Source: Pseudomonadota bacterium
GTDB lineage: Bacteria; Pseudomonadota; Alphaproteobacteria; RF32; CAG-239
Reading direction: 5' to 3'
Length of the DNA stretch: 64,000 bases
Assembly (NCBI GenBank): GCA_918234285.1
Contig: CAKJXZ020000024.1
Span: forward strand, 1 to 64,000
The stretch's first letter is position 1, and each line of letters starts with the position of its first letter. This document shows positions 14,431 through 32,256 of the stretch, piece by piece. A program made the position numbers and the translations under genes. The notes below the pieces were generated by a model that was not told where the DNA came from, did no database searches, and was given only the letters and a program-made list of their open reading frames with translations.

Positions 14431-14495
14431 ATAAAACAATGTGTTATATAACACAAAAAACAACGCTTTTCATTATTTGCGCGTTATTAAAATAA

Positions 14496-14639
14496 TGTCA
14501 TACCTTTCGTAGCGCGGTGCGTCTGCGAGTCAAGGTATCTGGTCTTTGGCACGCAGTGCCGCTGTCGATTAAAAAATAGCGCTGCGCAAAGATAAGTTCC
14601 CTTGACAAAGTGACGCACAGCGCACTTTGAGGGATGACA
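14496..14639. repeat. Second TGTCAT...ATGACA palindromic element
   Basis: Terminal inverted ends; internal arms gcgc/gtgcgtc/gtcaagg pair with ccttgac/gacgcac/gcgc. Confidence 0.7.
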
Positions 14640-14648
14640 ATATTTCTG

Positions 14649-14679
14649 GCGGGGTGGATTTATCCCCGCTTTTTTATTA
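14649..14679 (+). repeat. Copy 2 of the 31-bp terminator direct repeat
   Basis: Identical to 14253-14283. Confidence 0.9.
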
Positions 14680-14733
14680 TTGGTTGCATATTAAATATTA
14701 TTGTGTTATACAACAAAAACCAAAGGAAAAAGC

Positions 14734-15306
14734 ATGGCAGAAGATGATAAATACAAAAAGTGCCCGGAGTATTGTCCGTTTTTGAAAGCAAACAACACGT
14801 TTTGCGAGTTGTTTCGCCGTCCGTTGCAGCTGACACACGGTTTGTCGCTGAAGTGCGAAGAATGCAAAAATCCGGATCAGCGCAAGAGCTCGTATAAAGC
14901 TCTCGGCCTTTCCATTGATGACCGCGAACAAATTTGGCAGAAGGCGATTTTGAAGTATAACGAAATCGAACTCGGCAAAAAGCGCGAAGAAGAAGGCGTG
15001 CGCAAAAAATTTGCGGCTTTATTGGAGGATAAATACGGCGCACGTCCGCCGCTTGAGGGTAACACTTTTGTGAAGAATTTAATTATCAATCTGTATATGG
15101 TGCTTGATGCCACCGAGCGCAATATGATGATGTCGATTTTGAACGGGCGCAACGGCGATAAGCTGATTGAAGCCATTGACCGCATGCCTAAGGACGAGAA
15201 TTTGTTGCGTAACTTCCGCCGCGAACTTGATGACCACTTTAAGAATCATCAGCTCGAAATCAAGCGCGAGCAAAATCAAAATACAACTGTTAACCAACGC
15301 ATGTGA
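14734..15306 (+). CDS. Hypothetical protein with N-terminal Cys cluster (possible Zn-binding)
   Basis: Start ATG 14734 after AAAGGA; CPEYCPF..C..CEEC; helical remainder. Confidence 0.75.
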   Translation: MAEDDKYKKCPEYCPFLKANNTFCELFRRPLQLTHGLSLKCEECKNPDQRKSSYKALGLSIDDREQIWQKAILKYNEIELGKKREEEGVRKKFAALLEDKYGARPPLEGNTFVKNLIINLYMVLDATERNMMMSILNGRNGDKLIEAIDRMPKDENLLRNFRRELDDHFKNHQLEIKREQNQNTTVNQRM

Positions 15307-15312
15307 TTTTTG

Positions 15313-15340
15313 TTGCTTTTTTGTCAAATAATGCTATAAT
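15313..15340 (+). promoter_or_regulatory. sigma70-like promoter
   Basis: TTGCTT-16bp-TATAAT with TG extension; AAGGAG SD before 15367. Confidence 0.6.
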
Positions 15341-15366
15341 GGACTCAATTTGAAGGAGAACAACTT

Positions 15367-17379
15367 ATGGCAACCGAAACTTTATTAACCAGAACCAGAG
15401 ATAATTGCGTTATCGCGTTTACCATTGATTTCAGTAATGAGGCGGAAAAACGGCGCCTTAAACTCGAGTGCGAAAATATTGCGAGCAATATAGATTATCA
15501 TGCCGGTTTCAGAATAAATTTCGGTCCCGGTATCAATTATGATGATGCGAATACCAAGTTTTTAAATAAGGAAATCTCCGGCTATCACTATCGCAAAGAT
15601 AGGGCGAGTTTTGATAACGGTATGCGCAGTGATCCGCCGGCTCAGCCCAATACTCTTTCGCTTTCGTATCGTATGGATGATGCTTTTTTTCCGGAAGTGA
15701 TTAAAAATCTCGGTTTTAAAATAATTCCGGCAGATAAAACCTACAATATGCGCTACGATGCAGCGAGCGGACAATTTAAGGCCGAGGGCTTTGTCCGGAC
15801 AACCGCCACGGTTAATGCCGGCAAAAGAGAATTGGAAATCGTACGCAACCATTATCGCTTTGCGCCGAGTGACTACCGGCGTTTGCAACAGTTGCAGGCA
15901 GATTTTGCCCGTGCCAAGGCCGCTAATCCGCGGCTTACCGAACGTGATTTTTCTCATAACAATTTAAGCAACAGGCGTGACCGTGCCCTCTTTAACTTTT
16001 ATGGTCAAAAGAAAGCAAATGTCGACAATCTCAGCACTACTATTTCGCACGAAATGAAGCATATTAAAAATGCGGTGTTTGATGCCGGTTTAACCCTTAA
16101 AACAGATAACAAACGCCTGAGCGTCGACAACTATTATCGGGTTGCGGTAGAAGATGAGCGCAGTGCGTATTTGGAAGAATTGGTGCACAACATCAATACT
16201 TATTTACAACGCGGTGATTATGACGATTTTTCAATGTTTTATGTAAATAACCGAGAGATTATAACCGAATTAAAACGATTGAGAACTCCGGCCGAACGCG
16301 TAGCTTATGTGCAAAATTGGCCGCAGCTGGTGGCATTCAAAATGCGTGACTTTGAGCAAAATCACCGTCGGGCATACGATTTTGAGCCGGATAATTATGT
16401 GATGCGTCCGGAAGATTATGATGCCGACGGCGACAGCAAACAGCGTCAGTTTTTGCAAACCACTAAGTCATATATAAAGCGGGCTCCGCTGAATGCGCCG
16501 GAAGATGTTGATGGTGCTGAGTTCAGAAAATTACGTTCACTGTTTTACAATTATCAAATTTATAATCCGACAACCCGTCGCATGGAGGCGGTAAACTTGG
16601 CGCAATATATCACTCCGGATTTGGAAGTAACCATAGATGACCGGATTCGCAACGATATTATCCGTCCGCAACAACTTCGTTTGAATGAACGTCTGCATGA
16701 ATTTGCGGAACAGAGAGCACGCGGGGAGATAAATCAGGTATTGATAGAACCGGCAAAATCTCTAATGCGCGGTGGTGTTTGCGGCAGTTCGTTTGTTAAC
16801 GAAATCGATAATTTCCGCATTTCAACTTTGTATGAAGACGGGCAAAGTACCCCTACTCCTACACCTACGCCTACTCCTACCCAGGTGCCTGATCCTCATG
16901 CCGATTGGAGCAATAACTTGCAGACATATTGGCAAGGTGTTGAAGGCTATCGTGAAATTGCCAAGACCGGCAGTGAATATAAATTTAAGGTTAATGATGC
17001 AACGGTGCGTTACACTTCCAAAAAAGACGTACAAGTCAGCAAAAATGCCGATTATGAGCTGTATGTCAAGTTGTTGCGCGAACCGAGCAACCACGATGCT
17101 CCGGTTGAATTTTTGGATACATTGAGCCGTGAACAGGCCTTAATGTTATATGTTGCGTGTGTTAATAACGGACGAACAATGCGCGGTGCCGTGCCGACCG
17201 ATTTATCCGGCATCGAGCAAATTCGCGGGATTTCGGCGGCGGAAATGAATAAGTTTCGCTATCGGATGCAAAACGACCAAACCCGTCGGCAGCAGGAGCG
17301 ACCGGGTGCAACGCAATCGCACAAACCAAATTCACACGTTTTAATGCCGAAGACAAAAATCAATCAAAATACTCGCTGA
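15367..17379 (+). CDS. Hypothetical signal-less protein with HExxH zincin-like motif, (PT)n linker and C-terminal domain
   Basis: HEMKH at 16048-16062 followed by YYRVAVEDERSA; TPTPTPTPTPT linker at ~16850-16882. Confidence 0.8.
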   Translation: MATETLLTRTRDNCVIAFTIDFSNEAEKRRLKLECENIASNIDYHAGFRINFGPGINYDDANTKFLNKEISGYHYRKDRASFDNGMRSDPPAQPNTLSLSYRMDDAFFPEVIKNLGFKIIPADKTYNMRYDAASGQFKAEGFVRTTATVNAGKRELEIVRNHYRFAPSDYRRLQQLQADFARAKAANPRLTERDFSHNNLSNRRDRALFNFYGQKKANVDNLSTTISHEMKHIKNAVFDAGLTLKTDNKRLSVDNYYRVAVEDERSAYLEELVHNINTYLQRGDYDDFSMFYVNNREIITELKRLRTPAERVAYVQNWPQLVAFKMRDFEQNHRRAYDFEPDNYVMRPEDYDADGDSKQRQFLQTTKSYIKRAPLNAPEDVDGAEFRKLRSLFYNYQIYNPTTRRMEAVNLAQYITPDLEVTIDDRIRNDIIRPQQLRLNERLHEFAEQRARGEINQVLIEPAKSLMRGGVCGSSFVNEIDNFRISTLYEDGQSTPTPTPTPTPTQVPDPHADWSNNLQTYWQGVEGYREIAKTGSEYKFKVNDATVRYTSKKDVQVSKNADYELYVKLLREPSNHDAPVEFLDTLSREQALMLYVACVNNGRTMRGAVPTDLSGIEQIRGISAAEMNKFRYRMQNDQTRRQQERPGATQSHKPNSHVLMPKTKINQNTR

Positions 17380-17511
17380 AAAACGACCTCAATAAATGCG
17401 CAAGGAGGTTGCAATTTTGCAAAAAATGAGTTACGGTGCTTAAAAATTGCAAAAACCGCCGTAGAGTCAAAAAAACGGCCTTATTTTTGATTGTGGATTT
17501 AGAGGTACAAT

Positions 17512-18852
17512 ATGGATAACAAAACAATATATGCCTTGTCGACGTTGTTCGGAAAATCCGGAATTGCGGTGATTCGTGTTTCCGGAAAAGCGGCTTTTTC
17601 CGTTTTTGATAAAATGACGAATATTGCGGCGCGTGAAGTGATTGATCGCAAAATGTATCATGTCAGAATTTTTGACGGTGTTTCACATGAAACATTGGAT
17701 GATTGTCTGCTGGTCGGATTTAAGGCGCCGAACTCATTTACCGGCGAGGATACGGTCGAAATAAACTGTCACGGTTCTAAAGCGGTTATTCGTAGCGTGC
17801 TTGAGGCGCTGTCTGCCCTACCCGACTTTCGTCTGGCTGAAGCCGGAGAGTTTTCGCGCCGCGCCTTTTATAACGGCAAAATGGACCTAACCGCTGCCGA
17901 CGGTTTGGCCGATTTGATTGATGCTGAGACCAAAATTCAGCAAAAAACAGCGTTACGCCAAATGGGAGGAACGCTGTTCAATCTTTATGAATCCTGGCGA
18001 GAAGAACTTGTGGCTATGTTGGCATATCTTGAAGCATTTATCGATTTTCCGGATGAGGAAATTCCGCAAGACACCGTTTTTAAAATAGAAAACACTGTAT
18101 TTAAATTAACCGAGACGATTTCAAAGCATATTGCCGACAACAAAATCGAGGAACGCTTGCGCGACGGCTTTCAGGTGGTTATCTCCGGCCCGACCAATGC
18201 CGGCAAATCGAGTTTAATTAATGCCATTGTTAAGCGTAACGTGGCGATTGTCTCCGATATTGCCGGTACTACTCGTGATGTGATAGATGCTTATGTAGAT
18301 ATAAATGGCTTTCCGGTTATTTTTTCGGATACTGCCGGCTTGCGGGATTCGACGGACGCTATTGAGCAAATCGGCATAAATTTGGCGCGCGAAAAAATAG
18401 CAAGTGCCGATTTCAATATCTTTTTGTTTGATGCGGAAAACACCGAATCGGATATTTTTGCTGACTATATTCGAACGGAAGATAATTTTCTGCTGGCCGC
18501 AAACAAGTCGGATAAGCTTTCTGCCGACCGCAAAAAAGAATTGCTGGATAAGGGGTGTGTACTTATTTCTGCCAAGAATAATGAAAATATTTCAGCAATT
18601 ACAGATAGATTGGCAGCTTACTTTGAATCAATTTATCAACAAAGTTCTGCTTCTTTAATGACACGGCATCGTTATAAAGAAGCTTTATCCGAGTGCTTGG
18701 ATAATTTGCGGCGGTTTAATTTACAAAAAGAAATCGAATTGGCTGCGGAAGATATTCGTCTGGCGTGTCGAGCTATAGGCAAAATCACGGGGCGCGTTGA
18801 GGTTGATGAAATTCTTGATAAAATTTTCAGTAGCTTTTGTATTGGAAAATAA
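17512..18852 (+). CDS. mnmE: tRNA modification GTPase MnmE
   Basis: SFTGED, GPTNAGKSS, GTTRD, DTAG, NKSD, terminal FCIGK. Confidence 0.98.
   Translation: MDNKTIYALSTLFGKSGIAVIRVSGKAAFSVFDKMTNIAAREVIDRKMYHVRIFDGVSHETLDDCLLVGFKAPNSFTGEDTVEINCHGSKAVIRSVLEALSALPDFRLAEAGEFSRRAFYNGKMDLTAADGLADLIDAETKIQQKTALRQMGGTLFNLYESWREELVAMLAYLEAFIDFPDEEIPQDTVFKIENTVFKLTETISKHIADNKIEERLRDGFQVVISGPTNAGKSSLINAIVKRNVAIVSDIAGTTRDVIDAYVDINGFPVIFSDTAGLRDSTDAIEQIGINLAREKIASADFNIFLFDAENTESDIFADYIRTEDNFLLAANKSDKLSADRKKELLDKGCVLISAKNNENISAITDRLAAYFESIYQQSSASLMTRHRYKEALSECLDNLRRFNLQKEIELAAEDIRLACRAIGKITGRVEVDEILDKIFSSFCIGK
17679..17694. promoter_or_regulatory. parS site (1 mismatch) inside mnmE
   Basis: TGTTTCACATGAAACA. 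Confidence 0.85.
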
Positions 18853-19010
18853 CACTGTATTTAAACAAATTGAATCAAAAATTAAACTCGTTTAGCTAAC
18901 ATATTGATATGACTCAAATAAATAAACAGTGTATTTAAACCCTGTGCAGATTTTTTGTTTGCTTTTTATTTTAAGTTGTTTTATGTTAGGCGCAACTTTA
19001 TGAGGGAAAA

Positions 19011-20858
19011 ATGATAGAACTTGTTGATGTAATAGTCGTGGGCGGCGGTCATGCCGGTTGCGAGGCAGCTGCAGCAGCTGCTCGTATGGGGGCAAAAACC
19101 CTGCTGATTACGCATAAAATCGATAAAATAGGGGAAATGTCCTGTAATCCGGCCATCGGCGGTCTGGGGAAGGGGCATTTGGTACGCGAAATCGACGCGC
19201 TTGACGGTTTAATGGCACGAGTTATTGATAAAGCGGGTATTCAATTCAGAATGCTGAATTTATCCAAAGGACCGGCAGTTCGCGGACCGCGCGCGCAGGC
19301 TGATCGCAAACTCTACAAAAAGTTTATGCTGGAAGAATTACGAAAAATCAATAACTTATCAATATCAGAAGCGGCAGTTGAAGGGCTAATTATTGCCGAC
19401 AATCGCATCAACGGCGTAATATTGGCAGACGGAAGCAAAATATCGGCTGCAGCGGTTGTACTTACTACGGGGACATTTCTCAACGGTGTAATGTTTACCG
19501 GACATCAAACCACGGAAGGCGGTCGTGTCGGCGATGAAGCATGTCGCGGTATAACACCGTATTTAAAGCGGGTCGGGCTGACTTTGGGACGTCTTAAAAC
19601 CGGCACACCGGCACGTCTGAACGGCAAAACCATAAATTGGGATATTTTAGAACGTCAGCCGGGTGATGAAGTGCCGCAGGCTTTTTCATTTTTAACTAAA
19701 GAGATTGTCAATCCACAAATAGATTGCGGGATAACCTATACAAATGAATCAACACATAAAATTATTCGTGAAAACTTTTCAAAATGCGCACTTTTTTCCG
19801 GTTTGATAACAGGTCGCGGCCCACGTTATTGTCCTAGTATTGAGGATAAATTGGTGCGTTTTGCCGACAGAACATCGCATCAGATTTTTCTGGAGCCGGA
19901 AGGATATGATACCGATGTTGTGTATCCTAACGGGATTTCAACTTCGTTGCCGGCAGACGTACAGGATGCGTTTATCCATACGATGAAAGGGCTTGAGAAT
20001 GTGGAGATTCTGCGCTATGCGTATGCTATAGAGTATGATTATGTTGATCCGCGGGAATTAGATCATTGTTTGCAAACGAAAAAGGTGAGCGGTTTATATT
20101 TAGCAGGACAAATAAACGGCACAACCGGGTATGAAGAAGCAGCAGCCCAGGGACTGCTGGCTGGAATAAATGCCGCGCTTAAAGCAAAAAACGATGAGCG
20201 GGAATTTTATATTGATCGCAGCCAGGGTTACCTCGGGGTTATGGTTGATGATTTGATAACAAAAGGTGTAGATGAGCCATACCGTATGTTTACTTCGCGC
20301 TCGGAATATCGTTTGTTGTTGCGAGCAGATAATGCGGATATGCGTTTGACTGAGTTGGGGCATGACATCGGTTGTGTTGGTGAAGAAAGATACGCTGTAT
20401 TTAAACAAAAACGCACGGAAATTGCAAAATTTAATGCGTATTGCGAAGGAAAAACAGTGTCTTTTACTGATATTGAAAAGCAAGGATTGAGTGTTAAACA
20501 TAACGGCAAAAAGACATTAAAAGATGTAATGAGCTATCCGAATGTTTCACGTGAAACAATGGAAAAAATTGATTCCGAAATAGCTAAAACCGATCCTAAA
20601 GTTTATGAGCAGATTGAGATTGATGCTAAATATTCGGGATATTTAAAACGTGAATACGAGGATATTGCCGTATTTAAAAAAGATGAAAATCTGAAAATAC
20701 GCGAGGATCTTGATTATAGTAAAGTAGGGGGATTATCTACCGAAATGGTGCAGCGTTTCTCAACCGTGCGCCCGAAAACCATCGGAGAGGCTTCCAGAAT
20801 TACCGGCGTTACACCGGCCGCGGTCACTGCTTTGTTGGGGTATATCAAAAATGCCTGA
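19011..20858 (+). CDS. mnmG: tRNA uridine-5-carboxymethylaminomethyl modification enzyme MnmG (GidA)
   Basis: [56 protein letters not shown]. Confidence 0.98.
20543..20558. promoter_or_regulatory. parS site (perfect) inside mnmG
   Basis: TGTTTCACGTGAAACA (encodes NVSRET). Confidence 0.95.
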
Positions 20859-21696
20859 GTTTCAACCATATACGTATCATAGCCATACTAATTTTTCCGA
20901 CGGCCATGATGAATTGCTTGCCATGGTTCGGCAGGCCAAAGAAATCGGTTTTACCGAACTTGGTGTCAGTGACCACTTAATTGTCCATAAAAATATGAAG
21001 CAAAGTTTAAGTTGGTCATATTTAGAAAAAAATCGCGCTTCGTATGTATATAACGATAATTTTAAAAGTATTTTGGAAAAATATCAACGCCATTGTGAAG
21101 AGATAAGGCGCGTTTCTCGGCAGGAGAATTTTCGATTGCTGGTCGGATTTGAGGTTGATTATTTTCCGTATAACGGTTGGGAAGAAGAATTTAAGTGGTT
21201 TGTTTCGCAGCTTGATGTTGATTATTTACACAGCGGCAATCACTTTTTTTGCAGTGAGGATTGCGAACAGATTATTAATATGACTTTCTTTTTAAGTGTA
21301 TGTAAAGATGCGTCATTGCATAAGCAGTATTTTTCGCAACACTTTAAGATTTTGGAACGGGCCGTTAACTCCCAAATGTTCAAATTTTTAGCGCACATGG
21401 ATTATATGCGACGCTTTGCCGGTGATGAATACGGCGTTGATACGTTGCGGCCGGAGAAAGAAGTAGTGTTAAAGGCATTGCGTGATACCGGCACGGCGCT
21501 GGAAATCAGTACTAAAGGACTGCGGAAAATAGGGGATTTTTATCCGGATTTCTCTATTTTGCAATTAGCCGGAAAAATGGGAATTTCGGCAGTGATAAGT
21601 GATGATGCACATTGTGTTGCCGAGCTGGGAATGGATTTTAAAAAAGCGGAAAATGCTCTGCAAAAGGCCGGAATAACCAAACGACTTAAGCTTTAG
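20851..21696 (+). CDS. PHP-family phosphatase (histidinol-phosphatase HisJ/HisK-like)
   Basis: YHSHT, SDH, GFEVD, GNH, AHMD, EIST, SDDAH metal-binding motifs. Confidence 0.88.
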
Positions 21697-21832
21697 GATA
21701 TTAACTATCGTAGCGGAGTGTTTTTTAGCAAAAAAAACATTGTAAATTTCGCTTAAAAATTTTTAGTTTAAAAACCCATATATTTTGTTGCAAATTTAAA
21801 AGAATCTTCCATACTATCGCTCAGAGGGTAAA

Positions 21833-22459
21833 ATGGATATTGATTTTGAACTGCAAAAATACAATGTTTCACGTGAAACAATCCAAAAATTGCAAGATTT
21901 TGTGGCGATTTTGCGCGACTGGAACGAAAAAATGAATCTGGTCAGCAAAAATTCCATGGAAGATGTATGGGTACGCCATATTTTGGATTCTTTACAATTG
22001 ATAGAGTATTTGTCGCCGGATGTGAAAAGTTTGGTAGATATCGGTAGCGGCGCCGGATTTCCCGGAGTAGTGCTGGCAATCGCTATGCAAGAAAAATTTC
22101 CGACGTCGCAAATCACTCTGGTTGAGAGTATTACTAAAAAAACGGTGTATTTAAAAGATGTATGCCAAAAATTGGGTCTTAATAATGTAAAGATTGAAAA
22201 TAATCGCGTCGAGAGCATTGTATTTAAAGATGTGGATGCAATAACGGCACGCGCGGTTGCTGCTTTGGAGATTTTATGCGGCTATGCTTATAAAATCGGT
22301 AACAAGCAGACCGAGATGCTGTTTTTGAAGGGGCAAAGCTATGCGCAGGAGGATGCCGCGGCAAGGCAGAAGTGGCGCTACGATGCAGATGTATATCCTA
22401 ACCGCTACGCTGAAGGCGGTGTAATTATGAAGTTGCGTAATTTAAGGAAGCTCAAATGA
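21833..22459 (+). CDS. rsmG: 16S rRNA m7G527 methyltransferase
   Basis: WN..MNL, RHILDS, DIGSGAGFPG, TARA; located between mnmG and parA. Confidence 0.97.
   Translation: MDIDFELQKYNVSRETIQKLQDFVAILRDWNEKMNLVSKNSMEDVWVRHILDSLQLIEYLSPDVKSLVDIGSGAGFPGVVLAIAMQEKFPTSQITLVESITKKTVYLKDVCQKLGLNNVKIENNRVESIVFKDVDAITARAVAALEILCGYAYKIGNKQTEMLFLKGQSYAQEDAAARQKWRYDADVYPNRYAEGGVIMKLRNLRKLK
21865..21880. promoter_or_regulatory. parS site (perfect) inside rsmG
   Basis: TGTTTCACGTGAAACA. Confidence 0.95.
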
Positions 22460-23223
22460 AGATAATATCTATTGCGAATCGTAAAGGAGGAGTTGGTAAA
22501 ACCACTACCACAATCAATATTGCCACGGCGCTGTCGGCCGTCGGTAAAAAGGTATTGGTGATTGACTTTGACCCGCAGGGAAACGCCACAACGTCGTTAG
22601 GTATTGCCAAGAAGAAAGGTCAATTTTCTTCATACAATGTATTGACCGGAGGCTGCGCGGCGGCTGAAGCAATAGTTCACACCGATATTACGCAGTTTGA
22701 TTTAATGCCTTCTTCAGCGGACCTTGCGGCGGCGGAAATTGAGCTGGTTGAGTTACCGAATCGCGAATTCGTGCTTAAAAAAGCTTTGCAAAATTTGCAA
22801 AGTATCTACGACTATATACTAATTGATTGCCCGCCGTCGCTTAATTTGATAACCATTAATGCGTTGGTATCTTCGGCATCGGTTATTGTGCCTTTGCAAT
22901 GCGAATTTTTAGCGTTGGAAGGGTTGGCGGATTTAATCAAGAATATCAATGCAATCAAACGTAATTTTAATCCGGAATTGAAATTGCAGGGAATTATTCT
23001 GACTATGTTCAGTCGGCAGAATAATTTAAGTAAAATGATCGAGGCCGATGTGCGCAAATATTTCGGCGACAAGGTCTATCGAACCGTTATTCCGCGGTGT
23101 GTGCGGATTGCCGAGGCGCCGTCTTTCGGTAAGCCGATTTTGGTGTATGATTTTAAAAGCACCGGTGCGCAAGCATATATTCAGTTAGCTAAAGAATTTT
23201 TAAAGCGTGAAAAGGAGATGTAA
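22456..23223 (+). CDS. parA: Chromosome partition ATPase ParA
   Basis: KGGVGKTT, DFDPQGNA, DCPP, EAPSFGKP. Confidence 0.97.
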   Translation: MKIISIANRKGGVGKTTTTINIATALSAVGKKVLVIDFDPQGNATTSLGIAKKKGQFSSYNVLTGGCAAAEAIVHTDITQFDLMPSSADLAAAEIELVELPNREFVLKKALQNLQSIYDYILIDCPPSLNLITINALVSSASVIVPLQCEFLALEGLADLIKNINAIKRNFNPELKLQGIILTMFSRQNNLSKMIEADVRKYFGDKVYRTVIPRCVRIAEAPSFGKPILVYDFKSTGAQAYIQLAKEFLKREKEM

Positions 23224-24120
23224 ATGAACGCAAACAGCAGAAATCCTCTGGGTAAAGGTATAGGAGCATTATTGGGTGACGACGTCGATATCTTACTTGA
23301 TGATGATAACGATGTCGAAAATTTTGTGCAGAACACTGTATTTAAAGATTCTAAAATCAACCCGTTTGAAGTTGCTACGGATTTGATAAGTCCGTGTGCT
23401 TTTCAGCCGCGGTCTGCATTTGATGAAGATGCTCTGGTATCTTTAAGCGAATCAATCAAAGAAAAAGGAGTTTTGCAACCGCTTTTGGTGCGCAAAAAAG
23501 ATAATCGCTATGAAATCATCGCCGGAGAGCGTCGTTGGCGTGCTGCCCAAAAAGCCGGACTGAGAACGGTTCCGGTAATAATTAAGGATTTTTCAGATCA
23601 AGAGACGCTGGAAGTTGCTTTGGTTGAGAACTTGCAACGTGAAAATCTTTCGCCGATTGAGGAAGCCGAGGGTTTGAACCGATTAATGGCAGAATATGAA
23701 TATACACAGGAAACTCTGGGAAAAGTTATCGGTAAATCTCGCAGTTATATTGCTAACAGTTTGCGTCTTCTGGTCCTGCCTTTTGATGTACAACAAATGG
23801 TTGCCGACGGCGCTTTGTCGGCCGGACATGCCCGAGCACTGGTGGGGTTGCCGAATGCTACCGAAATTGCCAAAGAAGTGGTTCGTAAAGGTTTGAATGT
23901 TCGCCAAACCGAAAAAATGATTGCCGGAATGAAGGATAACAAACCAAAACCGGAAAAATTAACCGACAAAGATTTACTGCAAATTATTGCTGATTTAGAA
24001 CGTAAATTAAGCCTAAAAGTCAAAATTAATGCTGGTAAAAACGGAAAAGGTAGTGTAACATTAAAATACAATAATCCGGCGGAGCTCAGCTCCATTCTGG
24101 ATATTTTGGAACAACGCTGA
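23224..24120 (+). CDS. parB: Chromosome partition CTPase ParB
   Basis: LGKGIGALL N-terminal peptide, QPR, AGERRWRA, ENLQRENL, HTH. Confidence 0.97.
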   Translation: MNANSRNPLGKGIGALLGDDVDILLDDDNDVENFVQNTVFKDSKINPFEVATDLISPCAFQPRSAFDEDALVSLSESIKEKGVLQPLLVRKKDNRYEIIAGERRWRAAQKAGLRTVPVIIKDFSDQETLEVALVENLQRENLSPIEEAEGLNRLMAEYEYTQETLGKVIGKSRSYIANSLRLLVLPFDVQQMVADGALSAGHARALVGLPNATEIAKEVVRKGLNVRQTEKMIAGMKDNKPKPEKLTDKDLLQIIADLERKLSLKVKINAGKNGKGSVTLKYNNPAELSSILDILEQR

Positions 24121-24138
24121 TATTATAAGGAGACGAAA

Positions 24139-24384
24139 ATGCCTACAATCTTGGAAATGATGTTGGAAAACTGCAAAAAAGCCGGATACCATCCGACACA
24201 AAATATTGAAAAAATCGCTAAAGCCAAGAATATGATGTTTGGTGAAAGCGAATGGCGTCGCTGCCCGTGCGATGGCCAAAACGAAAAAAGATATTGCATT
24301 TCGGAATTATGCCGCAGCGATATTGAGCGTGACGGTATTTGTCATTGTCGTTGCTATCAAAAAGTTTCCGGCGATAATAAATAG
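24139..24384 (+). CDS. Small Fe-S protein, ferredoxin-thioredoxin reductase catalytic-subunit-like
   Basis: CPC...C....C...GICHC pattern; AAGGAG SD. Confidence 0.7.
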   Translation: MPTILEMMLENCKKAGYHPTQNIEKIAKAKNMMFGESEWRRCPCDGQNEKRYCISELCRSDIERDGICHCRCYQKVSGDNK

Positions 24385-24416
24385 ACGTCTGATCTTTAAA
24401 CTTTCGGAATTTACAG

Positions 24417-27400
24417 ATGCGTAATCCGCAGTTCATACATTTGAGAGTGCATACGGCTTATTCGCTTTCACTGGGCGCAATACCCGTGTCTAAGCTGACG
24501 GAGCGCTTGCATGAACTGAATGTACCGGCTTGCGCCATAACCGATCGCGGTAACCTGTTCGGCGGGAAAGCTTTTTCCAAAAGCGCCGCCGATATGGGTA
24601 TTAAACCGATTCTCGGGGCGGAATTGAGTCTGCATAATGACGATTCCGAAAATCTTTCCTTATCTAAAGGGCAGGAGCTTGAGCCGCAACGCATAATATT
24701 GTTGGTGAAAGACGCACAAGGTTATGCTTCTTTAATGAAATTATTTCACCGCTATTATCTGGATAATATGGAGAACAGCATATATCCGCAGATAAATATG
24801 ACGGATTTGCGCAACTATGGTGCGGGGTTAATTTGTCTGACCGGCGGCTATGAAGGGCCGCTGGGGCAACTTATTTTGCAAAACCGCAAGGCAGATGCCG
24901 AGAAAAAACTGTTGGAACTGAAAGAGATTTTCGGTGACCGGCTGTATGTCGAAATTTCACGTGTCGGCTATGATGAAGAGGCTGCCACCGAACCGGTGTT
25001 TTTGGAACTAGCCTACAAACACAATATACCTTTAGTGGCAACTAACGATGTTTTCTTTTTTGATGAGGATATGTATGAGGCGCATGATGCCCTAATTTGT
25101 ATTGCCGCCGGCGAATATGTTGCCGACGACACGCGCCGTAAATACTTACCGACAAATCGTTGGCGCAGCGAAAAAGAAATGGTCGAATTGTTCGCTGATA
25201 TTCCGGAAGCTATTGAAAATACAGTAAAAATTGCTGAAAGATGCAATTATTTATCTAAAAAAGTCGAGCCTTTGCTGCCGATATTTATATGTCCGGACAA
25301 CAAAACCCAGGATGAATTTATTACCGAAGAAGCCTACAAGGGATTGCACGAGCGTATGGTAGCTCAAGTTTATACGCCGGAGATGACACCGGAAGAACGG
25401 TTGGCGATTGATGAAGAATATTATGCGCGACTGGAATATGAACTGAGTGTCATTAAAAAGATGGGATTTCCCGGCTACTTTCTCATCGTTTCGGACTTTA
25501 TTCGCTGGTCTAAAACACACGGCGTGCCGATTGGTCCGGGGCGCGGATCCGGTGCCGGTTCGATTGTGGCGTGGTCACTCAAAATTACGGACTTGGATCC
25601 GATTCGGTTGGATTTGTTGTTTGAGCGTTTTTTGAATCCGGAACGTGTCAACATGCCGGATTTCGACGTTGACTTGTGTCAGGAGAATCGCCACAAAACC
25701 ATCGAATATGTGCAAGAAAAATATGGTCATGAAAAAGTAGCGCAAATCATAACTTACGGTAAGTTGCAGTCAAAGGCGGTGATTCGCGATGTGGCGCGCG
25801 TATTGCAAATGCCGTATAGTCAGGCTGATAAAATCTCCAAAATGATACCTCCCGGTTCCGGCGGCAAAAATCCGACTCTGCCGCAATCTCTGGAAATGGT
25901 GCCGGAACTGCGTGAAATGCGCGATACCGATCCGCAAATCAATAAGTTGTTCGAGATTGCCATAAAACTAGAGGGGTTGTATCGCAACTCCGGTATGCAT
26001 GCGGCCGGAGTAGTTATCGGTGACCGTCCGCTGGATGAACTGGTGCCGCTGTATAAAGACCCGCGCGCTGATATGCCGGTGACGCAATATGATATGAAGT
26101 TTGTAGAAGAAACCGGCCTGATTAAGTTCGATTTTTTGGGCTTGAAAACGCTGACGGTAATTGAACGGGCGGTTGAATGGGTCAAAAAAATTCACGGGGT
26201 TGAACTCAAAATGGCCGAAGTGCCGCTTGATGATGTAGAAACCTATAAAATTTTGCAGGAAGGTAATACCAGTGCCGTCTTTCAATTTGAATCCGCCGGT
26301 ATGCGCGACGTGATGAAACAAATCAAACCGGACCGTTTTGAGGATTTAATTGCGGTGATTTCGCTTTATCGACCGGGCCCGATGGCTAATATTCCGACAT
26401 TTATCAATCGTAAGCACGGCATTGAAAAAATCGAATATCTGCATCCGGATTTGGCTCCGATACTTGATGAGACCTATGGCATTATGGTGTATCAGGAGCA
26501 GGTGATGAAGATTGCGCAGGTGCTTGGCGGATACACCCTCGGAGGTGCCGATAAATTGCGTAAGGTTATGGGTAAAAAAATGGTGGCGGAGATTCCGCAT
26601 CAACGCGAAATGTTTACCGAGGGTGCCACCAAAAAAGGCATTGATCCGAAAATTTCCGGAGCTATTTTTGACCAGATGGCCAAGTTTGCCGAGTACGGTT
26701 TTAATAAATCTCACGCCGCTGCTTATTCGCTGATTTCCTATCAAACGGCGTATTTAAAAGCGCATTACCCGGTGGAATTTATGTGTGCGGTTATGGATTT
26801 TGATATTACCAATACCGATAAAATAGCGTTCTACACCGACGAAGTGCGGAAGATGGGATTTAAAGTTTTGCCGCCGGATATAAATCGCTCCGATGCATTG
26901 TTCAAAGTGGAAGACGGTAATATTCGTTTTGCCCTTGCCGGAATCAAAAACGTGGGCGAGGCCAATATGAATGCAATCGTTGAAGAACGTGAAAAGAACG
27001 GTGTATTTAAAAATCTGTCGGATTTTATTCATCGGGTTGATATCAAACAAATCAATCGCCGGCAGATGGAGCAACTGATAAAGGCCGGTGCCTTTGACGG
27101 GCTGGAACAAAACAGAGCAAAATTATATAATAATATCGATACGGTTTTACGCCATATTGCTGCGGCGTGCGAAACCAAAAACAGCGCGCAGACTTCGCTG
27201 TTCGGCAACCAGGAATTGGTGGCGGAAGTCAAACTGGAAAATGCCGGCGGTTGGTCCGACTTGGAAAAATTGCAGTATGAAGCGGAGGCCATCGGCTTCT
27301 ATCTGTCGGCACACCCGCTCGACGTTTATAAAGACAGCGTTGAAAGATTGGGTATCAAAAAATATATGGACGCCGTAAAAGGTATCAAAAACGGCGATAA

Positions 27401-27890
27401 AGTATTGGTAAATTTAGCCGGTTGTGTGCAGGGGCTGCAAAAACGCATCGGTAAAACCGGTAAAGAATACGGGATATTGCGGGTAAGCGACACCACATCT
27501 GCGTTTGACGGTTTTGTTTTCGGTGATTCGCTGTCGGCGGCAAAAGAGGCGGTCGCACAGGGAGTTCCACTATTTTTGGGAGCGCGGATTGAGAAAAAAG
27601 ATGATGATACTCCGCCGCGTATAATTTTTGATATCGTGCGTACGCTTGATGAACAGATTACCGATAATTCCAAAGGTTTGGTAATCGGGATATCCGATGT
27701 GGCGGCGGTACGTCCGATTAGAGAAATGTTGTCGCATGAACACTACGGACCGTATAAAATATATATAGAGCCGGAATTACCGGATTGGGATATCAGAATC
27801 CAACTGAAAAACAGCTATGCGCTGGATAACGGCAAACTGATGACCAATATCCGCGCGGTTTCCGGCGTAACCTTGGTAAAGGAATTGTAA
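24417..27890 (+). CDS. dnaE: DNA polymerase III alpha subunit
   Basis: HLRVH PHP domain, GPGRGSGAGS, MPDFDVD, HAAG, FNKSHAAAYS. Confidence 0.98.
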   Translation: MRNPQFIHLRVHTAYSLSLGAIPVSKLTERLHELNVPACAITDRGNLFGGKAFSKSAADMGIKPILGAELSLHNDDSENLSLSKGQELEPQRIILLVKDAQGYASLMKLFHRYYLDNMENSIYPQINMTDLRNYGAGLICLTGGYEGPLGQLILQNRKADAEKKLLELKEIFGDRLYVEISRVGYDEEAATEPVFLELAYKHNIPLVATNDVFFFDEDMYEAHDALICIAAGEYVADDTRRKYLPTNRWRSEKEMVELFADIPEAIENTVKIAERCNYLSKKVEPLLPIFICPDNKTQDEFITEEAYKGLHERMVAQVYTPEMTPEERLAIDEEYYARLEYELSVIKKMGFPGYFLIVSDFIRWSKTHGVPIGPGRGSGAGSIVAWSLKITDLDPIRLDLLFERFLNPERVNMPDFDVDLCQENRHKTIEYVQEKYGHEKVAQIITYGKLQSKAVIRDVARVLQMPYSQADKISKMIPPGSGGKNPTLPQSLEMVPELREMRDTDPQINKLFEIAIKLEGLYRNSGMHAAGVVIGDRPLDELVPLYKDPRADMPVTQYDMKFVEETGLIKFDFLGLKTLTVIERAVEWVKKIHGVELKMAEVPLDDVETYKILQEGNTSAVFQFESAGMRDVMKQIKPDRFEDLIAVISLYRPGPMANIPTFINRKHGIEKIEYLHPDLAPILDETYGIMVYQEQVMKIAQVLGGYTLGGADKLRKVMGKKMVAEIPHQREMFTEGATKKGIDPKISGAIFDQMAKFAEYGFNKSHAAAYSLISYQTAYLKAHYPVEFMCAVMDFDITNTDKIAFYTDEVRKMGFKVLPPDINRSDALFKVEDGNIRFALAGIKNVGEANMNAIVEEREKNGVFKNLSDFIHRVDIKQINRRQMEQLIKAGAFDGLEQNRAKLYNNIDTVLRHIAAACETKNSAQTSLFGNQELVAEVKLENAGGWSDLEKLQYEAEAIGFYLSAHPLDVYKDSVERLGIKKYMDAVKGIKNGDKVLVNLAGCVQGLQKRIGKTGKEYGILRVSDTTSAFDGFVFGDSLSAAKEAVAQGVPLFLGARIEKKDDDTPPRIIFDIVRTLDEQITDNSKGLVIGISDVAAVRPIREMLSHEHYGPYKIYIEPELPDWDIRIQLKNSYALDNGKLMTNIRAVSGVTLVKEL

Positions 27891-27891
27891 A

Positions 27892-28881
27892 ATGCGTAAG
27901 AATAAATATACATTTTTCGGAGTTTTGCAAACGTGGACACAGCTGATAGTGCGCGCTTGCCGACAGTGGCGAATTTTCGGAGCATATGCTGCCGTGATAA
28001 CGGTTATAGATGCGGTTTTCGGAAACTGGTCTTATTCTTGCCGCGGTGACGAGCCGGAGTTTTGGTGTGTCACTCTTCCGAACAATAAATATGTGGTAAT
28101 TGCCGCTATGTGCATATTTTATTTATTGCTGACATACCTGATTTGCGCATTTGCAACGGATTTACACAATTCGCTGTTCAAGAACAGTGTATTTAAATCG
28201 CGGAACGTATTCTCTATCAGCAAGCAAAAGCTAAATATAACTGTTGTTCTGGCCGGATTGTTTTTGGGGGCGGCAATTTCTTTATTGGTAGCTTATTATA
28301 TTATTCAGCGCCCGGCTAATCCGGATTTTGAGGTTGAGTTTGGCTACTTTCTGATAGTGTTTGTGTTGCTGATGATACCGCTGATGATGATTCGATGTGC
28401 GGCTTGTTTTGCCTATTATATCGACACCGGGCACTTTGCTTTGGGCAAAGTATATAACTACACGAGCGGTCGTTCTTATATCAGTGTGATGATGTTTTTA
28501 CTGTTGGCGATAGTTTTGCTGATAATAAGCATGAATGCCTACGGATTTTTCAATCGTATCTCATTTGAATATAACAGTCTTACAACCGCTGTGGCAACCG
28601 ATTTTACCGATAATCTGCTTAAATTGGTAATAGTAACGGCATTTTTATTGTTTGCACAGGCGCAATATATTCGTATGGAAGAAACTGAAGAATTGCACAG
28701 GGAACTTGTTGCTGCCGAAATTAAAGCTCATTTGGAAAGAGAAATCCCGGCAGATTCTCAAACATCTGCAGCTTCTCTAACAGAAACCAAATTAACCGCG
28801 AAGGCTGCCAAAAAGAAGAAGAATCAGCATAAATCATCAAAGGTGTCCACAGCAAAAACCGCGAGGAAGCAAAACAGATGA
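27892..28881 (+). CDS. Hypothetical integral membrane protein with basic C-terminal tail
   Basis: About 6 hydrophobic segments; starts 1 nt after the dnaE stop. Confidence 0.75.
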   Translation: MRKNKYTFFGVLQTWTQLIVRACRQWRIFGAYAAVITVIDAVFGNWSYSCRGDEPEFWCVTLPNNKYVVIAAMCIFYLLLTYLICAFATDLHNSLFKNSVFKSRNVFSISKQKLNITVVLAGLFLGAAISLLVAYYIIQRPANPDFEVEFGYFLIVFVLLMIPLMMIRCAACFAYYIDTGHFALGKVYNYTSGRSYISVMMFLLLAIVLLIISMNAYGFFNRISFEYNSLTTAVATDFTDNLLKLVIVTAFLLFAQAQYIRMEETEELHRELVAAEIKAHLEREIPADSQTSAASLTETKLTAKAAKKKKNQHKSSKVSTAKTARKQNR

Positions 28882-29624
28882 AATACATAATTTCGATATT
28901 GTTCGGTTTGTTTTTATGGCCGGCATCAATAAGCGTTGCCGCACCGAGCGTTGCCGATGTTGAAAACGCCATAAAAAAGAGTGATGTTGCTACGTTGGAA
29001 AAAATGATTAAGAGCGAGCTCGATTTGAATATGCATGATTCACATGGAAATTCGCTGTTTTATTTTGCGCTTACCAATACGCGTTCGCCGCAGATATTAC
29101 GCTTTTTGGCAGATAACGGTGCCGATTTGAATACGCCGGTACCATCGACCGGAGAAACTCCGTTGGTTTATGCTGTTGCGGCAGCAGACAGGATACAGGC
29201 AGACGCCGAGCGGGTATTTATCGGAGAACTATCGCCGCGGGATCGAGAAAAAATGGCGGATGATTTTAAAAAGGTTGCGGCCAAAGAAATGAAACGTGCC
29301 GTAGAAACGGTGCGTCTGCTTGTGGATTTAGGGGCAGATATCAATCAGGAAACACCGCTCGGCACCCCGTTGATGAAGGCGGCAACCAATGCGTGGAATG
29401 GTGAGATTGTGGCTATGTTGCTTGAAGCCGGAGCCGATGTGAATCAAGAAGATCAAAACGGACGTACGGCTTTGTTTTATGCCGAAGCATACGGCAATTC
29501 CGACATTTCTCTGCAGCTTATTGCCGCCGGTGCCGATGTTTATCACACCGACGTCAACGGCAAAACATATATCGAAGCTGAGAAAAAAGACTTGCAGCCC
29601 GAAGAAATTATCCACGATATGTAA
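28878..29624 (+). CDS. Exported ankyrin-repeat protein
   Basis: Signal peptide; GETPLVYA, GTPLMKAA, GADVNQEDQNGRTAL. Confidence 0.9.
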   Translation: MKYIISILFGLFLWPASISVAAPSVADVENAIKKSDVATLEKMIKSELDLNMHDSHGNSLFYFALTNTRSPQILRFLADNGADLNTPVPSTGETPLVYAVAAADRIQADAERVFIGELSPRDREKMADDFKKVAAKEMKRAVETVRLLVDLGADINQETPLGTPLMKAATNAWNGEIVAMLLEAGADVNQEDQNGRTALFYAEAYGNSDISLQLIAAGADVYHTDVNGKTYIEAEKKDLQPEEIIHDM

Positions 29625-29736
29625 AATTTTATCACAAAGATAGTGAAAAGTATTTTTTTATGCTTTAGTATACACTCAACCGGTCAGGGTAATGAAATTA
29701 CTTTGGCCAAAGTTTAATTTTAAAAAGGAAGGAAAA

Positions 29737-32256
29737 ATGTTTAGCAAAGCAAAGATTTGTAAGGTTGCATTATCAGCCTTGACTATATTGTTTTCTGCTA
29801 TAAACGTTGCCAATGCTTCGGAATTGGATTTGGTTATTCCGAATTTGGGTGACGCAACTTATAGCATTTTCGGTCATAGTACGATTTTCGGCTGTCCTAT
29901 TACCGGCAATTTGTTACTTTTGTGCGGTATGGGTATCTGTCTTTTGGGTATGATTTTCGGTTTGTGGGAATTTCTCAGCATTAAAAAAATGCCGGCCCAC
30001 GAAGTAATGCTCAAGGTATCGGAAACCATCTATGCCACCTGCACTACATATATGAAACAGCAAGCCAAACTGTTGTTTGTTTTGGAGCTGTTCATCGGTG
30101 CATGCATCGTTTATTATTTCGCAGGCTTAAACGCTACTCCGTTGCCGCAGGTTGTTATCATTCTGTTATGGTCAATCCTGGGTATTTTGGGTTCGTTTAC
30201 GGTAGCATGGTTCGGTATGCGTATCAATACTTATGCCAACTCTCGCACTTCCTTTGCCTCGCTCAAAGGTAATGCTTATCCGGTTATGCACTTACCGCTT
30301 CGTTCCGGTATGTCTATCGGTGTATTACTGATTTGCGTTGAATTAATTATGATGATGTTCATCTTGGTATTTGTTCCACGTGAAACCGCCGGTGCCTGCT
30401 TTATCGGTTTTGCCATCGGTGAATCTTTGGGTGCTTCGGCCTTGCGTATTTGCGGCGGTATTTTTACCAAAATTGCCGATATCGGTGCCGATTTGATGAA
30501 GATTATCTTCAAAATTGATGAAGACGATGCACGTAATCCGGGCGTTATTGCCGACTGCACCGGCGACAATGCCGGCGATTCCTGTGGTCCGACCGCCGAT
30601 GGTTTTGAAACCTACGGTGTTACCGGTGTTGCTTTAATCAGCTTTATTGTTTTGGCTGCCGGACACTTCTTTACGGCCGACGGTTCTTTGGCTGCCGACA
30701 TCAATGCTCAACAATTACAAGCTCGTTTGATTACTTGGATTTTCGTAATGCGCATTTTGATGATTATCACTTCGGTATTCTCTTATGCCATTAACGGTTT
30801 CTTCGCTAAATTGATTTACGGTAAGTCTAAGGAATTTGACTTTGAAAAGCCGTTGACCAGTCTGATTTGGATTACCTCGCTGATTTCTATTGCCGTAACT
30901 TTCGGCGCTTCTTACCTGATGTTGCCTAAATCTCAGTTCGGCCCGTACATTTGGTGGGAAATGTCGGTAATCATCAGCTGCGGTACTTTGGCTGCGGCGA
31001 TTATTCCGGAATTTACCAAAATCTTCACTTCTTCCAAGTCTAAGCACGTACAAGAAGTTGTGAATGCCAGCCGCGAAGCCGGTGCTTCGTTGAACATTCT
31101 GTCCGGTATCGTATCCGGTAACTTCTCCGGTTTCTGGCAAGGTGTGGTTATTGCCGGCTTAATGGCATTGGCTTATGCTACCGCCTCCGGTCATGTTGCC
31201 GAATTTTTCAGCAGCTGGCTCGGTTATGAGGTTTTGCCGCAAGCTCACATCGGCGCAATCATGATTTATCCGACGGTATTCGCCTTCGGTTTGGTTGCTT
31301 TCGGTATGCTCGGCATGGGCCCGGTAACAATTGCCGTAGACAGCTATGGTCCGGTTACCGACAATGCGCAATCCGTATTTGAATTATCGCAAATTGAAAG
31401 CATCAAAGGCATTAAGAAAGAAATCAAAAAAGAATACGATTTCGAGCCGGATTTTGAACATGGTAAACATTTGCTCGAAGCCAACGATTCGGCCGGTAAT
31501 ACCTTTAAAGCCACTTCCAAGCCGGTATTAATCGGTACGGCCGTAATCGGTGCTACCACCATGATTTTCTCAATCATTTTGCTGCTGAACTTACAACTGA
31601 ACTTGATTGATGCGCGCGTATTAATCGGTATGATTTTGGGTGGCGCCGTGATTTACTGGTTCTCCGGTGCGGCGATTCAAGCCGTTTCCACCGGTGCTTA
31701 TCGTGCGGTTAACTACATTAAAGAGCATATTAAGCTTGATACCAAGAAAGCTGCTTCGGTTGAAGATTCTAAGACGGTGGTGAAGATTTGCACGCAATAT
31801 GCACAAAAGGGTATGTTCAATATCTTTATCGTGATTTTCTCGTTTGCGATTGCGTTTGCTTTCTTCGGTCCGGAATTGTTCGCCAGCTATCTGGTTTCCA
31901 TCGCTATTTTCGGCTTGTATCAGGCACTGTACATGGCTAATGCCGGCGGTGCTTGGGATAACGCCAAAAAGGTAGTTGAAGTTGATTTGAACGAAAAAGG
32001 TACACCGTTACACGATGCTTCCGTTGTCGGCGATACGGTGGGCGATCCGTACAAAGATACGGCTTCGGTTGCCTTGAACCCGATTATTAAATTTACCACA
32101 CTGTTTGGTTTATTGGCTGCAGAAATGTCGGCAAAAGTATCGGAAGAAAATCCGAACCTTGCTTTCGGTATTGCCTGCACCTTCCTGGCCATCGGTTTGG
32201 TATTTGTATGGCGTTCATTCTACGCTATGCGCATTGAAGCCAAAAAAATGGATTAA
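29737..32256 (+). CDS. hppA: Membrane-bound ion-pumping pyrophosphatase (divergent subfamily)
   Basis: GGIFTKIADIGADL, EDDARNPGVIADCTGDNAGD, DSYGPVTDNA, GNTFKAT, GDTVGDPYKD; start at ATG 29737 after AAGGAAGG. Confidence 0.95.
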   Translation: MFSKAKICKVALSALTILFSAINVANASELDLVIPNLGDATYSIFGHSTIFGCPITGNLLLLCGMGICLLGMIFGLWEFLSIKKMPAHEVMLKVSETIYATCTTYMKQQAKLLFVLELFIGACIVYYFAGLNATPLPQVVIILLWSILGILGSFTVAWFGMRINTYANSRTSFASLKGNAYPVMHLPLRSGMSIGVLLICVELIMMMFILVFVPRETAGACFIGFAIGESLGASALRICGGIFTKIADIGADLMKIIFKIDEDDARNPGVIADCTGDNAGDSCGPTADGFETYGVTGVALISFIVLAAGHFFTADGSLAADINAQQLQARLITWIFVMRILMIITSVFSYAINGFFAKLIYGKSKEFDFEKPLTSLIWITSLISIAVTFGASYLMLPKSQFGPYIWWEMSVIISCGTLAAAIIPEFTKIFTSSKSKHVQEVVNASREAGASLNILSGIVSGNFSGFWQGVVIAGLMALAYATASGHVAEFFSSWLGYEVLPQAHIGAIMIYPTVFAFGLVAFGMLGMGPVTIAVDSYGPVTDNAQSVFELSQIESIKGIKKEIKKEYDFEPDFEHGKHLLEANDSAGNTFKATSKPVLIGTAVIGATTMIFSIILLLNLQLNLIDARVLIGMILGGAVIYWFSGAAIQAVSTGAYRAVNYIKEHIKLDTKKAASVEDSKTVVKICTQYAQKGMFNIFIVIFSFAIAFAFFGPELFASYLVSIAIFGLYQALYMANAGGAWDNAKKVVEVDLNEKGTPLHDASVVGDTVGDPYKDTASVALNPIIKFTTLFGLLAAEMSAKVSEENPNLAFGIACTFLAIGLVFVWRSFYAMRIEAKKMD
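30372..30387. promoter_or_regulatory. parS-like site inside hppA
   Basis: TGTTCCACGTGAAACC; one mismatch to TGTTNCACGTGAAACA. Confidence 0.7.

Follow-up and report, generated by a model that had tools for sequence, protein, structure and literature searches.

Few cis-acting elements are known to organise bacterial chromosomes, namely parS, the DnaA box, matS, KOPS (FtsK orienting polar sequences), ram and, recently, ricS. In sporulating Bacillus subtilis, RacA acts at ram, a GC-rich inverted repeat present at 25 sites over ~600 kb and devoid of polarity; as far as its description goes, ram is a dedicated centromere-like motif beyond parS, concentrated towards the origin, which it anchors. In Staphylococcus aureus, RicO is described as binding nine 18-bp non-palindromic, origin-proximal ricS sites (bioRxiv 10.64898/2026.03.06.710092). 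Here, we report an asymmetric 15-bp word, AACRSYGTATTTAAA, that forms a co-oriented array among the parS sites of a 64,000-nucleotide stretch (hereafter the window, whose positions are used as coordinates) of contig CAKJXZ020000024.1 from an uncultured alphaproteobacterium of the lineage RF32; CAG-239 (assembly GCA_918234285.1). Its copies are putative cis-acting sites of a sequence-specific protein with an asymmetric site that would organise the origin/centromere domain, a proposal that we put forward tentatively. The window's own assembly (2,005,265 bp in 71 contigs, 43% GC) is denoted G000 and the window contig C24.

RacA/ram and RicO/ricS appear to be the closest analogues of this arrangement. 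According to the description of ricS, both it and the word are non-palindromic, of similar length, present in about nine copies, origin-proximal and found alongside parS. The two differ in that ricS sites are described over ~700 kb, whereas the word lies mostly within 10 kb and is interleaved with parS, and in that the host of RicO is a Firmicute; no RicO-like protein came to light in the genomes compared here, no search aimed at one being made. The likeness concerns the description of ricS rather than the site sequences, and that description, as far as consulted, gives no co-orientation of the sites. The word shares with ram, as described, the character of a dedicated, origin-concentrated motif beyond parS, and departs from it in having polarity.

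Nine exact matches to AACRSYGTATTTAAA were found in the window, spanning 18091-28197 and all on the plus strand, whereas 100 dinucleotide-preserving shuffles of the window yielded none (0 expected versus 9 observed). An earlier inspection of the letters of this stretch (the sequence-only reading) had listed these nine copies, four near copies on the same strand and three outlying hits, and all of them were recovered as described (Table 1). Genome-wide, G000 contains 14 exact copies, comprising the nine of the window, three on contig C10 (33.5-35.5 kb, minus strand) and two singletons. The window holds 14 occurrences of the core GTATTTAAA where 1.59 would be expected, and the genome holds 37, with 12 of these 37 falling within 18.1-28.2 kb of the window, that is, 0.5% of the genome. 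The unconstrained consensus of the copies approximates wwAAC-A-N-T-GTATTTAAA. The 7-bp palindrome ACRSYGT recognised in the sequence-only reading exists at the level of this consensus only, the middle triplet of the word being free to vary (NNY) among orthologous sites. Among the copies located in spacers, 98% have T at position 6, and an A/T-rich stretch precedes the word; the comparison of spacer copies revealed no further conserved flank beyond the word, and the flanks, like the middle triplet, vary freely across orthologous loci.

The array shares its locus with the ParB/parS system. At up to two mismatches, the four parS sites of the window are the only ones in the G000 genome, and their location between 17679 and 30387 means that the array is nested within the parS zone. 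As with parS, the copies of the word reside inside conserved genes, at conserved positions and with very few elsewhere. They cannot be taken for parS itself, which is a 16-bp palindrome (TGTTTCACGTGAAACA) separately present here in canonical form, whereas the word is asymmetric, co-oriented and unrelated to that palindrome. The second cluster of the word, on C10, has no parS nearby.

The sequence-only reading had assigned the array to a parS/origin region. The coincidence with the parS cluster holds; the replication origin (oriC), in turn, lies outside the window, on C10. Our oriC calls rest on synteny, DnaA-box clusters and GC skew. In G000, the probable oriC is a 434-bp AT-rich spacer (C10:42773-43205; L001:16774-17206) extending from coaE/dnaQ (minus strand) to rho (plus strand), which holds three TTATNCACA boxes at the GC-skew minimum and no copy of the word; the cumulative GC skew of C10 turns at ~44-48 kb. 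The origin flanks on C10 carry dnaQ, smr, mltA, a Tim44-like gene and secB, and dnaA is located on C49, away from the mapped origin. In G031, G058, G069 and G050, the skew of long contigs switches at the same coaE|rho spacer, which again has clustered boxes, and G076 has the same spacer and boxes with a skew too weak for a clear switch.

Clustering of the word near the origin extends to related genomes, in which it is conserved and origin-proximal. The array comprises 8-15 co-oriented copies among parS sites, accompanied by smaller satellite groups elsewhere in the origin-proximal 50-160 kb. Its distance from oriC is 1.5-12 kb in genera g14, g18 and g23, and 22-45 kb in the window's genus (22-31 kb in G090; 36-45 kb in G031), the relative order of C10 and C24 in the window's assembly being taken from kin. 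The three-copy cluster of C10 is found 7-10 kb from oriC, in asmA-like, ATP12 and acylphosphatase genes. In most genera (G058:C3, G069:C1, G050:C5, G076:C1) the mnmE-mnmG-rsmG-parAB block adjoins rho and oriC; in the window's genus (G031:C1, G090:C1) it has moved to the other arm, with dnaE directly after parB. The densest group seen, ~38 kb from oriC, has four copies in 740 bp (G078:C1:187486-188222; L124:7486-8222), three of which are packed into 70 bp and end immediately ahead of the ribosome-binding site belonging to a 206-aa gene.

Selection on the copies was assessed by comparing orthologous sites across a set of up to 30 loci with ParB proteins 55-96% identical to that of the window. 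The two reading frames noticed in the sequence-only reading are both real in this comparison, with GTA TTT AAA near-invariant across kin in one frame and ACA CCG TAT TTA AAR in the other. At the mnmE site 18091, GTA TTT AAA is retained in 27/28 orthologous loci with a variable middle codon, and at the mnmG site 19553 the TAT and TTA codons are invariant in 28/28 sequences and CCG is present in 89%. The parB copy at 23332 is found in 25 of the 26 orthologous loci listed, the remaining one (L032) having a two-mismatch copy with an intact core. When only codon columns with a conserved, degenerate residue were considered (27 motif-core versus 1953 background columns), the mean majority-codon share was 0.89 in the motif core versus 0.656 in the background, and codon identity reached at least 0.95 in 55.6% versus 8.9% of the columns (Mann-Whitney p = 1.3e-9, a value overstated by the non-independence of kin sequences).

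Some copies, moreover, were gained at the expense of protein residues. At the DnaE site 26997, most kin carry NGKFK, and NGVFK is confined to the window plus the five relatives nearest to it (a K to V change); the sequence-only reading had pointed out NGVFK correctly, with NGPFK instead of NGKFK as the usual residues. At the MnmE site 18070, DTVQK and DTVFK alternate by lineage (Q to F), indicating that this copy was gained in some lineages. The word also occurs in spacers and antisense within genes of relatives. Synonymous conservation, the use of two frames, the spacer copies and the residue-costing gains together show, as the sequence-only reading had supposed, that selection works on the DNA and not on the protein.

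The polarity of the word is as uniform as its sequence. Considering copies with zero or one mismatch and an intact core, and their direction within the contig, 55 of 56 copies in five origin-mapped genomes share one direction (15/15 in G076, 10/11 in G050, 8/8 in both G069 and G058, and 14/14 in G031). Across most genomes of the family, one assembly strand bears almost all of the copies, and the split counts of a minority could be explained by contig orientation. Seven copies inside family- or homology-supported genes of kin are antisense, and all of them point in the array direction. G076 contributes five (three within a PolyA_pol gene, two within an OEP gene), and an M23 peptidase gene of G058 and the atp12 homologue of G050 hold one each. 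These antisense copies show that direction is not set by transcription.

Polarity is also independent of the replichore. The main array of genera g14, g18 and g23 is located on the rho arm and directed away from oriC, and conserved copies on the coaE arm are directed toward oriC (Table 1), this continuity across oriC resting on one to five satellite copies per genome. In the window's genus, where the mnmE-dnaE block is on the coaE arm, all copies are directed away from oriC, those in asmA, atp12 and acyP among them. Copies of the atp12 region are therefore sense or antisense depending on the layout, and run parallel to the parS array in both. An exception comes from G098, where one exact copy, ~160 kb from the main array on the same contig (C11), occupies the other strand. 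The sequence-only reading had suspected a polarity switch between 13.6 and 18.1 kb, which was not borne out: its left-hand hits are at chance level, oriC is on another contig and kin show no flip at oriC. Two-mismatch matches number 94 across the G000 genome, so that the minus-strand hit at 13546 has no weight.

Head-to-tail tandem copies with a 13-bp offset were found in G050, G061 and G076, the G050 pair being antisense in the spacer of a minus-strand operon. Other paired arrangements occur in G000. At C29:15280-15309 (L003:6281-6310), between convergent fabA-like and hsp33 genes, two T-variant copies (GTTTTTAAA core) are joined tail to tail in a perfect 30-bp palindrome; a comparable pair, inverted and overlapping, is present at C30:104895-104915, and two tandem T-variant copies 20 bp apart (C22:36757-36791; L002:6758-6792) occupy the spacer downstream of an RNase J gene.

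The exact word is present in 18/18 sampled genomes of the window's genus and in 58/59 sampled genomes of the family, representing 15 genera, with copies at orthologous positions across the 15. Among 11 genomes from other families of the class, 10 gave no match and one had a single copy. The sister family was represented by one genome, G019 (79% complete), which has the same coaE|rho-mnmE-mnmG-parB layout with parS and zero copies of the word. It carries instead a variant, AACANNNYTCTTTAAA, in 10 copies genome-wide versus 0 for a reversed-pattern control, and six of these 10 are co-oriented in the rho-mnmE-mnmG-parB block. One copy near the 5' end of parB occupies a place similar to that of the window's parB copy in a different reading frame. 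The ParB open reading frame (ORF) of G019 (C44:6917-8176; L128) encodes 419 aa versus 298 aa in the window and has the variant word at both gene ends. No such word was found in G027, from another order. This co-variation of the word between sister families is what a diverging protein-DNA pair would give.

As a mechanism, we propose that a protein binds the asymmetric 15-bp word, possibly head-to-tail, as suggested by the copies arranged as 13-bp tandem units, and that the bound protein would organise or position the origin/centromere domain, as RacA does at ram or RicO at ricS; the specificity of this factor would have diverged between the sister families. The proposal builds on the observed DNA-level selection, location, family-wide conservation, uniform polarity and co-varying sister-family variant. 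Given the placement of the copies around oriC and, above all, among parS sites, a role in organising the origin/centromere is the most economical reading, and the word, like the sites expected of an origin-anchoring system, is a specific motif confined to the origin-proximal region. Binding sites of an origin-organising protein, as the sequence-only reading had proposed, thus remain the best account of its observation, in part supported, with a mechanism that is conjectural.

Several points weigh against this proposal. All the genomes compared are uncultured metagenome-assembled genomes. Three complete family genomes, G094, G049 and G089, have lost or nearly lost the word and kept parS, which implies that the motif system is dispensable. 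G094, from a lineage of 49.7% GC, has no copy in the 30 kb around oriC and parS; G049 has one copy; and G089 keeps, in its 30-kb region, a single exact copy together with two T-variant copies on opposite strands. The region of G094 (C14:4001-34000; L135, L136) belongs to genus g19, has ~50% GC versus 38% in the congener G072, and retains two perfect parS sites. In G089 (C12:97665-114923; L139, L140), the mnmG-parB block is directed toward oriC, head-on to replication, and its array is reduced to one copy; block direction and array decay may be linked. Pure anchoring, furthermore, does not need polarity, DNA being flexible at kilobase spacing, and a common direction over more than 100 kb is not explained by the analogy with RacA and RicO.

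Likewise, no binder of the word was identified among the candidates tried. A well-conserved 190-aa Cys-rich ORF upstream of mnmE (window 14734-15303, plus strand), with five invariant Cys near its N-terminus and a paralogue at C17:56319-56855, has a predicted model with a confident helical C-terminal half (predicted local distance difference test score, 69), and gave no Pfam family, PDB sequence match, atlas hit or fold match (best Foldseek E-value 4.3). It was rejected since a single-protein query found it only in the window's genus (6/6 genomes versus 0/54 of other genera). Excisionase-type HTH_17 proteins are sporadic (33/61 genomes), the G000 copy lying beside an integrase, and the best match among the extra ParB_N proteins of G000 is on a mobile-looking 1.6-kb contig, with further copies on C3 and C15. 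The search for a Tus homologue gave no PF05472 match in G000 (RTP was not searched for). Contig C13 of G000 (1567 bp) is a mobile-element fragment with a ParB-like protein of plasmid or integrative and conjugative element type, and C68:1576-2514 is a mobile fragment whose pentapeptide-like protein carries an HTH_17 domain at its C-terminus and is encoded beside a tyrosine recombinase. A Pfam screen of ORFs near oriC and the arrays in five genera returned HAD hydrolase, FeoB, HD domain, EPSP synthase, SecB, Tim44, MltA and Smr, along with one HTH_3 protein, possibly in a prophage fragment. None of the 60 G000 ORFs matched in at least three of the four genera compared was notable by location or size, no family search of this set being made.

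From the polarity, one may suspect a tracking process on the DNA, for instance from parS, or the reading of one strand. The array might then be a strand- or direction-reading device and not a set of mere anchors, a view that we regard as doubtful. It is based on the presence of copies over at least 100 kb around oriC on a single physical strand, regardless of replichore and of the strand of the genes, and on the satellite copies of the window's genus, which take a new direction where the parS block is on the other arm. Such a device, if real, would fit the discrimination of sister origins after replication and, equally, one-sided loop extrusion or clamp sliding from parS; we know of no bacterial cis-element of either kind.

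The tracking version of this idea, which we consider unlikely, views the word as a directional element read by a DNA-tracking machine, that is, a one-way gate or barrier for structural maintenance of chromosomes (SMC) extruders, ParB clamps, a translocase or a replication fork. A motor leaving parS would encounter the sites head-first to one side of it and tail-first to the other. The uniform absolute polarity in the five mapped genomes, its independence of gene strand and its maintenance across oriC all speak for it, as do the asmA/atp12 satellites, which are opposite in gene sense between the two layouts and yet match the parS array in both. Against it, the word matches no known bacterial polar barrier. 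A Tus-Ter or RTP fork trap was rejected on the PF05472 result given above and on the origin-proximal, unidirectional placement of the sites; a barrier to origin-derived forks is itself unlikely, as such forks would reach the coaE-arm copies and those of the array from opposite ends.

Alternatively, the word could be a strand-identity mark, whose strand-specific modification or reading would tell sister origins apart and bias which sister moves. The absence of a polarity flip at oriC, and a polarity that follows the parS array after the move of the block to the other arm in the window's genus, form the pattern expected if the strand, and not the replichore or the gene, matters. Neither a methyltransferase nor a reader is linked to the word, which has no known methylation target, the opposite-strand copy of G098 runs counter to a strand mark, and the scheme is conjectural throughout, all of which makes it improbable in our estimation.

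We give an equally low probability to the copies being non-canonical, low-affinity DnaA sites forming a datA-like titration or regulatory locus at the centromere, a possibility raised in the sequence-only reading as a divergent DnaA box. DnaA reportedly binds near parS in Caulobacter. The reverse complement of the core matches 6/9 positions of the DnaA box and 7/9 of the TTATACACA variant present in G000's own origin, and head-to-tail arrays are compatible with DnaA oligomers. However, the mapped origins use canonical TTATNCACA boxes, which cluster in the coaE|rho spacer instead of the array. The signature of DnaA domain IV, the roles of whose residues we take as established, comprises RDHTTV.HA and a PRQIAMYL helix. 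Both are conserved here with respect to Bacillus DnaA (8btg). In addition, the invariant positions of the word include non-box bases, the word is six bases longer than the box, and the sister family alters exactly the box-like part while its origin layout is still canonical. Box-like 9-mers, finally, are not notably enriched in the array, with five in its 10 kb and 26 in the whole window versus ~15 expected.

A signal acting at the RNA level or coupled to transcription (antitermination, pausing or processing) in long co-oriented operons would agree with the window and the C10 cluster, where every copy is on the sense strand of a gene or operon. The seven antisense copies in genes of kin and the antisense tandem pair in the spacer of the G050 operon speak against it; Rfam covariance models gave no match at gathering score in window 14000-31000, and the copies bear no regular relation to gene ends, leaving this explanation highly improbable. 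Chance, codon or dipeptide bias, or mobile-repeat remnants, to which the recurrence of the N-x-V-F-K frame in several proteins might point, are refuted by the shuffles, the spacer copies, the two frames, the high synonymous conservation, the orthologous positions across 15 genera and the lack of conserved flanks beyond the word, and none of the uniform frequency, compositional bias or missing clustering in kin that the sequence-only reading had set against its own claim was found.

Other known systems were also compared with the proposed origin-organising sites. KOPS, SpoIIIE recognition sequences (SRS) and Chi are asymmetric polar words of 5-8 bp that are distributed genome-wide and flip at the origin. 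The word is likewise asymmetric and strongly strand-polar; unlike them, it is 15 bp long, clusters around oriC and parS and keeps its direction across oriC, and a KOPS- or Chi-type identity was discarded in view of the concentration of its cores in 0.5% of the genome and of the coaE-arm copies pointing toward oriC with the array pointing away. The recombination directionality factors lambda Xis and P2 Cox and the plasmid proteins ParR and omega are small winged-helix or ribbon-helix-helix proteins that bind head-to-tail on direct repeats of ~7-13 bp, and the core, read as its reverse complement, is similar to the 9-bp P2 cox box. The tandem copies of the word recall such repeats, whereas those systems form tight arrays at attachment (att) sites, promoters and plasmid centromeres, and the word is kilobase-spaced in housekeeping genes. 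By eye, no fit was found to the consensus sequences of CtrA, IHF, extracytoplasmic function (ECF) or extended -10 promoters, an XerD arm or a type I restriction site.

Table 1. Copies of the word, parS sites and host genes in the window, and copies on the coaE arm of related genomes
Feature	Genome	Position	Strand	Remark
Bare core	window	3981	-	
Two-mismatch hit	window	13546	-	
mnmE, mnmG, PHP/HisJ-like phosphatase, rsmG, parA, parB	window	17512-24120	+	NCBIfam matches
parS	window	17679-17694		1 mismatch
Near copy GACACCGTTTTTAAA	window	18070-18084	+	2 mismatches; mnmE, 21 bp before next copy
Exact copy	window	18091-18105	+	mnmE, frame N-x-V-F-K
Exact copy	window	18851-18865	+	across mnmE stop codon
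Exact copy	window	18925-18939	+	mnmE-mnmG spacer
Exact copy	window	19553-19567	+	mnmG, second frame, T-P-Y-L-K
Near copy	window	20391-20405	+	1 mismatch; mnmG
parS	window	20543-20558		perfect
Near copy	window	20664-20678	+	2 mismatches, core intact; mnmG; weaker conservation in kin
parS	window	21865-21880		perfect
Exact copy	window	22141-22155	+	rsmG, second frame
Near copy	window	22214-22228	+	2 mismatches, core intact; rsmG
Exact copy	window	23332-23346	+	~36 codons into parB
dnaE	window	24417-27890	+	DNA polymerase III alpha; Pfam
Exact copy	window	26744-26758	+	dnaE, second frame, T-A-Y-L-K
Exact copy	window	26997-27011	+	dnaE, NGVFK
Exact copy	window	28183-28197	+	ORF of 329-aa membrane protein
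parS-like	window	30372-30387		2 mismatches
Near copy	window	38820-38834	+	1 mismatch; within 720-aa ORF of - strand
coaE-arm copy	G058	20435		toward oriC
coaE-arm copy	G069	54771		toward oriC
coaE-arm copies	G050	7877, 18611, 18624, 25837, 28267		toward oriC
coaE-arm copy	G079	205524		toward oriC
coaE-arm copy	G082	168776		toward oriC

The ORF of the 329-aa membrane protein follows dnaE in the window. Whether the copy at 38820 belongs to the array is uncertain, its host gene being poorly conserved. Two ORFs without a family match precede the block on the plus strand, one of 737 aa (12013-14226), Cys-rich and secreted-looking with internal repeats, and one of 670 aa (15367-17379) with a TPTPTPTPT linker; both are fast-evolving (37-86% identity among kin). 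An ankyrin-repeat protein (28878-29624, plus strand), whose weak best NCBIfam matches are Legionella Dot/Icm ankyrin effectors, is confined to the closest kin.

A literature search with the core GTATTTAAA and its reverse complement returned, among the matches listed, only primers or unrelated sequences, and the word was not described among the matches listed for origin-proximal, non-palindromic, oriented motifs near parS. The word thus appears to be a new chromosome cis-element, defined from its sequence and conserved throughout a family of abundant uncultured gut and rumen Alphaproteobacteria. Its unusual traits are a dense array interleaved with parS and a polarity that is uniform regardless of the direction of transcription and replication. 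For bacteria that cannot yet be cultivated, the 15-bp bait, the sister-family variant and the natural loss lineages offer a handle on the origin/centromere domain. Should the polarity prove functional, chromosome segregation might include a step that senses direction or strand.

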